Source: Escherichia coli (lineage in GTDB: Bacteria; Pseudomonadota; Gammaproteobacteria; Enterobacterales; Enterobacteriaceae). Taken from it: a DNA stretch of 64,000 nucleotides. The notes beneath the pieces are model-generated. The model ran no database searches. It saw nothing but the letters and a program-made list of their open reading frames with translations, and was not told where the DNA came from. The stretch lies in the NCBI RefSeq assembly GCF_016026235.1, contig NZ_CP065613.1; one strand, 5' to 3'. Position numbers and translations under genes: made by a program. Of the stretch, positions 37,361 to 39,886 are shown in pieces (positions within the stretch are counted from its first letter, which is position 1; each line of letters opens with the position of its first letter).

Positions 37361-39886
<2,526 letters not shown>

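Follow-up and report, generated by a model that had tools for sequence, protein, structure and literature searches.

The window, by which we mean the whole 64,000-nt stretch of Escherichia coli DNA that was analysed, carries kefF and kefC side by side on its forward strand, and the second of these genes is interrupted by an in-frame stop codon. The features of the locus are as follows.

36830–37360, + strand: kefF, intact, 176 aa, ancillary quinone oxidoreductase; its TAG end (37358–37360) overlaps the kefC start
37353–39215, + strand: full kefC frame, 1863 nt, 620 codons plus TAA (39213–39215), broken at codon 113 only
37353–37691, + strand: ORF for a 112-residue N-terminal fragment (TM1–TM4) from the native ATG, deposited as STM00617.1
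37689–37691, + strand: amber codon TAG, kefC codon 113; ancestral CAG (Gln), derived base T at 37689
37701–37703, + strand: in-frame TTG, codon 117, a possible reinitiation codon 9 nt past the stop; the frame 37701–39215 encodes 504 aa
37710–39215, + strand: ORF from ATG codon 120 to the native stop, 501 residues, comprising a truncated TM5a–TM13 and the KTN/RCK domain

By its domain order and its synteny, this locus is kefC, the gene for the CPA2 glutathione-gated K+/H+ antiporter. The protein reconstructed across the stop matches PF00999 (Na_H_Exchanger) and PF02254 (TrkA_N), both of which are split across the two fragments; in the Na_H_Exchanger profile (375 positions), the stop makes the split at positions 96 and 112 (Pfam). 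The order kefF-kefC-folA matches the annotation in FDAARGOS_943, 2018-05-2CC and K-12. The reconstructed protein also matches the E. coli KefC structures 8BXG (E = 0), 8BY2 and 9EMB (PDB), with about 99% identity, the same domains and kefF upstream. Unlike the KefC of these structures, however, the frame here stops short at codon 113, ahead of both the ion-binding core and the regulatory domain.

The amber codon and its origin

Read directly, the codon series at the site is CTG CGC TGG TAG GTC GCG GAA TTG ATC GGC ATG ACG, the TAG occupying positions 37689 (T), 37690 (A) and 37691 (G), and the list of open reading frames splits kefC at the same codon, which confirms the in-frame TAG that the original prediction had placed inside the gene. 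From the start at 37353, 112 codons precede it ((37689 − 37353)/3), which makes it codon 113, about a fifth of the gene's length from the start, and the unbroken frame of about 620 codons that a functional kefC requires is therefore not found here. The frame is 1863 nt long, divisible by three, and contains this single internal stop (n = 1); beyond it the gene is open to its normal TAA, in agreement with the earlier description of the remainder as intact. Of the conserved genes that could be placed in the window (n = 47), none other than kefC is interrupted by a stop. TTG 37701 and ATG 37710, which had been named as in-frame starts downstream, are both present in the sequence and in the list of open reading frames, and gene callers pick the ORF that begins at the ATG (deposited as STM00613.1).

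When a 61-mer with the site at its centre was compared with complete E. coli genomes, 4,238 of them matched, none identically and the best with one mismatch; the remaining 1,188 were unmatched by this short sequence and hence lie outside the 0/4,238 count. Codon 113 is CAG (Gln) in K-12 MG1655, as the original prediction had stated, so the stop does not belong to the reference, and it is likewise CAG in both of the closest complete genomes, FDAARGOS_943 and 2018-05-2CC. FDAARGOS_943 is 100.0% identical to the window across most of both flanks, and the C>T is the only substitution separating the two kefC genes; against 2018-05-2CC, 2 of the 1863 kefC bases differ, one of them synonymous and the other the C>T. 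With 2018-05-2CC as outgroup and FDAARGOS_943 as sister, the T at 37689 is polarised as derived, and the intact ancestral KefC protein is present on at least 1000 contigs. The allele is thus a point-nonsense allele, in which one substitution makes the stop, no indel is involved and the rest of the frame is intact.

The ancestral context, GCTGCGCTGGCAGGTCGCGGA, contains neither CCAGG nor CCTGG, so the mutated C does not lie in a Dcm CCWGG site. This rules out an amber hotspot caused by deamination of 5-methylcytosine and sets the kefC site apart from Miller's lacI amber hotspots. FDAARGOS_943 has a 6-nt deletion in its own kefC, and removal of the stop codon by that deletion was considered and ruled out, as this genome has CAG at codon 113 and the deletion lies 380 nt downstream. 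A description of the kefC codon-113 allele was not found in the literature.

We also considered whether the TAG is read as sense by programmed recoding, either through pyrrolysine-type decoding or through regulated readthrough. TAG at codon 113 is limited to one small clade, with C in K-12, in the nearest relatives and in all matched genomes; the stop is not conserved among orthologues, given that none of the 4,238 matched complete genomes is identical over the site; and the sequence flanking the TAG, downstream included, is the same as in the CAG ancestor. An Rfam scan of the whole window returned no family near the kefC site. Moreover, TAG properly ends three conserved genes at their normal positions, kefF (where it overlaps the kefC start), yabI and thiQ, the stop codons of the 47 conserved genes being TAA in 31, TGA in 13 and TAG in 3. 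These observations effectively rule out programmed recoding, to which we assign practically no probability, and they bear out the original view of the codon as a point nonsense mutation in a genome that uses TAG as an ordinary terminator. The Rfam matches above gathering score in the window were the ES003 sRNA at 19098–19150 (+), upstream of carA, and naRNA4 (REP-derived) elements at 49131–49210 (−) and 56157–56222 (−).

Carriers of the allele

The base call at 37689 had been singled out for checking in the original prediction, and the same T was found in at least eight independent public samples from differing projects and platforms. It is present in GCA_002466675.1, GCA_902503985.1, SRR3000441, SRR3578993, ERR3331069, SRR13627094 and SRR30892832 and, by locus, in L007–L010, L013, L016–L018, L020 and L021; the exact 112-aa and 501-aa fragments were already deposited (STM00617.1 and STM00613.1, respectively). 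A sequencing or assembly error over a true C would agree with the single-base difference from every complete genome matched by the 61-mer, but the T recurs in independent assemblies and read sets that fall into four or more distinguishable genotypes, by which a base-call error is ruled out; its probability is minute.

Several other loci retrieved near the site proved to be of a different nature. L011 and L012 were considered as further disruptions at the same spot, but the apparent one in L012 is an N-gap of the scaffold, and around the site L011 is free of lesions. Contigs L019 and L022–L024, which end 1–2 nt past codon 112 and were considered as an insertion or assembly hotspot, are wild-type (C) members of other lineages and not carriers; they turned up because a look-up with the exact 112-aa peptide selects such contig ends. 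L014 and L015 begin beyond the site and so say nothing about carrier status.

The carriers represent at least four genotypes within one small clade, to which codon-113 TAG is confined in the comparison across strains. Some match the window without a difference over 20 kb, and others lack the window's apaH 42033A, each with its own private SNPs, while the remaining stem mutations are common to all carriers within the stretch that each locus covers. Because the carriers share stem mutations yet differ in private SNPs, the stop arose on the stem of the small clade and was inherited through its diversification. The contig counts of the private protein variants nest in line with this stem origin and later diversification: LptD P502L is found on 179 contigs, RpsT K64N on 61, AraD G165S on 26, IleS P365L on 24, the kefC TAG on about 20, ThiP with a 25-aa deletion on 11 and ApaH P43L on 10.

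In one TAG sub-lineage (L018/L021), kefF, which encodes the partner protein of KefC, carries S34F (window position 36930). This single case may reflect relaxed constraint following the loss of kefC.

Predicted consequences for KefC

KefC has 13 TMs with its N-terminus outside, and its dimer interface is formed by TM1 against TM8; its K+ site consists of S125 and T127 at the TM5a-b break together with Q155 and D156 on TM6, and it is gated by a cytoplasmic RCK domain (PMC11150392). The local sequence puts the stop (Q113) in the short periplasmic turn between TM4 and TM5a. Because the stop precedes TM5a, the 112-residue product is predicted to lack the K+ site, TM8 and the KTN/RCK domain, and with the stop lying ahead of both the K+ site and the RCK domain, loss of KefC function is most likely.

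The reading that we favour, with a probability of about 0.85, is that of an ordinary loss-of-function allele: a spontaneous, clade-inherited nonsense mutation that leaves the strain effectively KefC-null. A spontaneous G:C>A:T transition turned CAG-113 into TAG on the stem of the clade and was inherited by all sampled members. Translation from the native ATG would then halt at 112 residues, yielding the TM1–TM4 fragment alone, and a strain left with neither the K+ site, TM8 nor the glutathione-sensing KTN/RCK domain would effectively have no KefC. In E. coli, UAG can be read by near-cognate decoding, and Gln is one of the residues then inserted (PMC4333366). A readthrough product would largely be wild-type KefC, expected by our own estimate to be a small fraction in the presence of RF1, such that residual output would amount at most to trace wild-type protein made with near-cognate Gln at the UAG, plus small amounts of an N-truncated restart product, presumably inactive. 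Kef systems act mainly in the survival of electrophile stress, and KefB and KefC are paralogous (PMC10224563); the allele would persist, in all likelihood, on account of the dispensability of KefC in most conditions and the presence of its paralogue KefB.

The original prediction had offered three outcomes for the strain, namely loss of functional KefC, an amber suppressor or a restart downstream, and of these, KefC loss is by far the best supported. In a restart, initiation at TTG 37701 or ATG 37710, 9 and 18 nt beyond the stop, would yield a C-terminal protein of 501–504 residues that retains KefC activity, either alone or with the TM1–4 fragment. There are established precedents in lacI and T4 rIIB, where translation restarts after nonsense codons, and in LacY, which functions when co-expressed in split form, and the break in kefC falls at a short periplasmic turn. 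The SD-like GGUAGGU ahead of the TTG pairs at −6.2 kcal/mol, which ranks it in the top 11% of start-like codons inside kefC, and with this moderate signal some C-terminal product may be made. The same pairing exists in the CAG ancestor, however, and because it is identical there, nothing has evolved to support restart; creation of a new Shine-Dalgarno by the mutation is likewise ruled out, the pairing energy being unchanged between ancestor and mutant. At ATG 37710 the SD-like pairing is ordinary, at −3.5 kcal/mol versus −10.3 kcal/mol for the native start.

Restart at either codon would also lose TM1–4 along with 3–6 of the approximately 11 residues of the TM5a half-helix that leads into the S125/T127 break, and the product alone would be without TM1, one side of the dimer interface. 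Because TM1–4 and part of TM5a are missing, activity of a restart product on its own is unlikely, and complementation by a separately made N-terminal fragment is conceivable but unsupported. No second kefC lesion was seen in any carrier examined, an observation that suits a young pseudogene but could also mean that selection still acts on the gene. Although it could be counted in favour of restart, the clade is too young for lack of decay to carry weight, with an estimated 0.7 extra kefC mutations or so expected on the sampled branches. We consider restart with retained activity improbable. No more probable, in our assessment, is a joint reading in which either KefC is made by reinitiation as two polypeptides that come together as an antiporter, working as before or gated differently, or the loss of KefC was positively selected, as the independent lesion in the sister strain might suggest.

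Substantial full-length KefC could in principle be made with the help of an amber (or ochre) suppressor tRNA, and a suppressor of the supE type would restore the original Gln, but nothing direct speaks in favour of this. The allele is common to at least four genotypes, so a costly suppressor would have to be co-inherited with it, and efficient suppressors are uncommon in natural isolates. The normal ends of kefF, yabI and thiQ at TAG, with kefC the only one of 47 genes to have an internal TAG, also argue against suppression. We regard a suppressor as very improbable; the 64-kb window, in which no tRNA genes were found, does not bear on it directly. Formally, the site resembles the classical supE/supF amber alleles and the lacI/T4 rIIB restarts, being a Gln CAG>TAG with close in-frame downstream starts; unlike those cases, neither a suppressor nor a restart product is in evidence here.

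Genome decay in the lineage and other kefC lesions

Across 52.8 collinear kb (window 10223–63023), 22 SNPs and a single 6-nt gap separate the window from FDAARGOS_943. When polarised with 2018-05-2CC, 14 substitutions are private to the window lineage, and 12 of them, the kefC C>T included, are G:C>A:T; in FDAARGOS_943, the corresponding figure is 7 of 10 private substitutions. The 14 window-lineage changes comprise 8 nonsynonymous (counting the stop), 5 synonymous and 1 intergenic, and the private substitutions, of which over half are nonsynonymous, hit even essential genes (rpsT K64N, ileS P365L and lptD P502L). The amber codon thus does not stand out among these recent mutations, a set that is biased towards transitions and has been weakly purged. 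Structural changes accompany these substitutions at the following features.

4232–5406 (approximate): IS110-family (ISSso6-like) element, transposase frameshifted by a 1-nt deletion at 5086
9455–10222: IS1, adjoining a loss of about 5.1 kb relative to FDAARGOS_943
62373–63908, − strand: thiP, with a derived 75-nt in-frame deletion (25 aa), junction at about 63016–63023

The segment of about 5.1 kb that is absent beside IS1 held espX1, a fimbrial subunit, a chaperone and most of an usher, of which only the C-terminal 228 codons remain (8782–9468, within the region 8775–10222). The first 3.8 kb of the window, with ribokinase-like, fucP-like and aldose-epimerase-like genes, abuts the IS110 element and lies about 125 kb away in FDAARGOS_943, and window 1–5406 is an IS-bounded rearrangement between the sister strains. 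The thiP deletion, which is flanked by 8-bp direct repeats (GCCAGCAC), is absent in both FDAARGOS_943 and the outgroup; the gene has two further private missense changes (A243T and G167S), and the exact 511-aa protein occurs on the 11 contigs counted above. From these changes in its sequence, the thiamine ABC permease is probably degraded.

Two further loci in the region vary between strains. The spacer between folA and apaH (39907–41287), which in many strains is occupied by ccdA-ccdB, here contains a truncated ccdA (59-aa ORF), a 155-aa ORF without a family match and an opposite-strand DUF4291 protein; PADLOC and NCBIfam gave no matches in this spacer. The neighbouring transporter gene yaaU, intact in the window (35388–36719), is marked as a pseudogene containing a stop in the annotation of 2018-05-2CC (L001/L005/L006).

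The window lineage shares with the nonsense pseudogenes of IS-rich clonal E. coli and Shigella-type lineages a stop made by one base change in a dispensable, otherwise intact gene of a young clade, and with reductive lineages of this type IS-mediated deletion and rearrangement, a G:C>A:T bias and a high nonsynonymous fraction. It differs from the latter in that its decay is modest, being limited in the window to the kefC stop, the thiP deletion and the IS1-deleted fimbrial/espX1 segment.

Other kefC lesions were found in other lineages. FDAARGOS_943 carries its independent 6-nt in-frame deletion (CGATGG, in a GATGGC/GATGGG repeat) at the equivalent of window 38071–38076, by which Met-Ala is dropped from LSMAMGAF in the membrane domain; the gene is annotated as intact (618 aa), and this allele is found on only 2 contigs. 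A second kefC amber, Q132* (CAG>TAG), lies 19 codons downstream of codon 113 in other E. coli backgrounds (L025–L029). Its haplotypes differ by 11–24 SNPs per 3 kb and it is present in 0 of 5,401 complete genomes, which implies that Q132* is a rare recurrent mutation. Variation among its carriers amounts to 17 synonymous and 2 nonsynonymous changes; retained KefC function as the reason for this ratio was rejected, since we read it as standing variation older than the independent mutations. Field and vaccine strains of S. Gallinarum have been reported with a 'disruptive deletion' in kefC (PMC10354334) and ST131 with kefC R147S as a clade marker (PMC4850260), function having been assayed in neither report. 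All of these changes, in Q132*, FDAARGOS_943, S. Gallinarum and ST131, are at other positions and in other lineages than the codon-113 TAG.

Such recurrence raises the question of adaptive loss, in which inactivation of kefC would have been selected, for example where KefC leaks K+ in a given background or niche. The sister FDAARGOS_943 has a kefC lesion of its own, such that 2 of the 23 differences over 52.8 kb sit in kefC; Q132* recurs on diverged haplotypes; and a TAG sub-lineage has the kefF change S34F. Yet kefC makes up 3.5% of the compared region, in which about 0.8 hits are expected and two are not significant, and the Met-Ala deletion allele is confined to its 2 contigs. In a collection of E. 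coli genomes as huge as that available, rare recurrent nonsense mutation of a dispensable gene is expected under neutrality, and neither amber allele (Q113* or Q132*) was among the complete genomes searched. The parallel decay of thiP points instead to general relaxed selection. We therefore regard adaptive loss as unlikely and retain the reading of an ordinary loss-of-function allele.

What is seen here is an ordinary pseudogenising event in a lineage with general genome decay. Unless the unlikely split-protein or adaptive-loss reading is true, it adds nothing new on the genetic code or on the Kef mechanism. The members of the clade are to be annotated as carriers of a kefC pseudogene, and the T at 37689 is a clean, clade-defining marker. 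On the strength of the truncated coding sequence, the clade is predicted to lack the share of electrophile-triggered K+ efflux and cytoplasmic acidification that runs through KefC; KefB remains, and the loss of KefC could slightly change survival under stress of the N-ethylmaleimide type.
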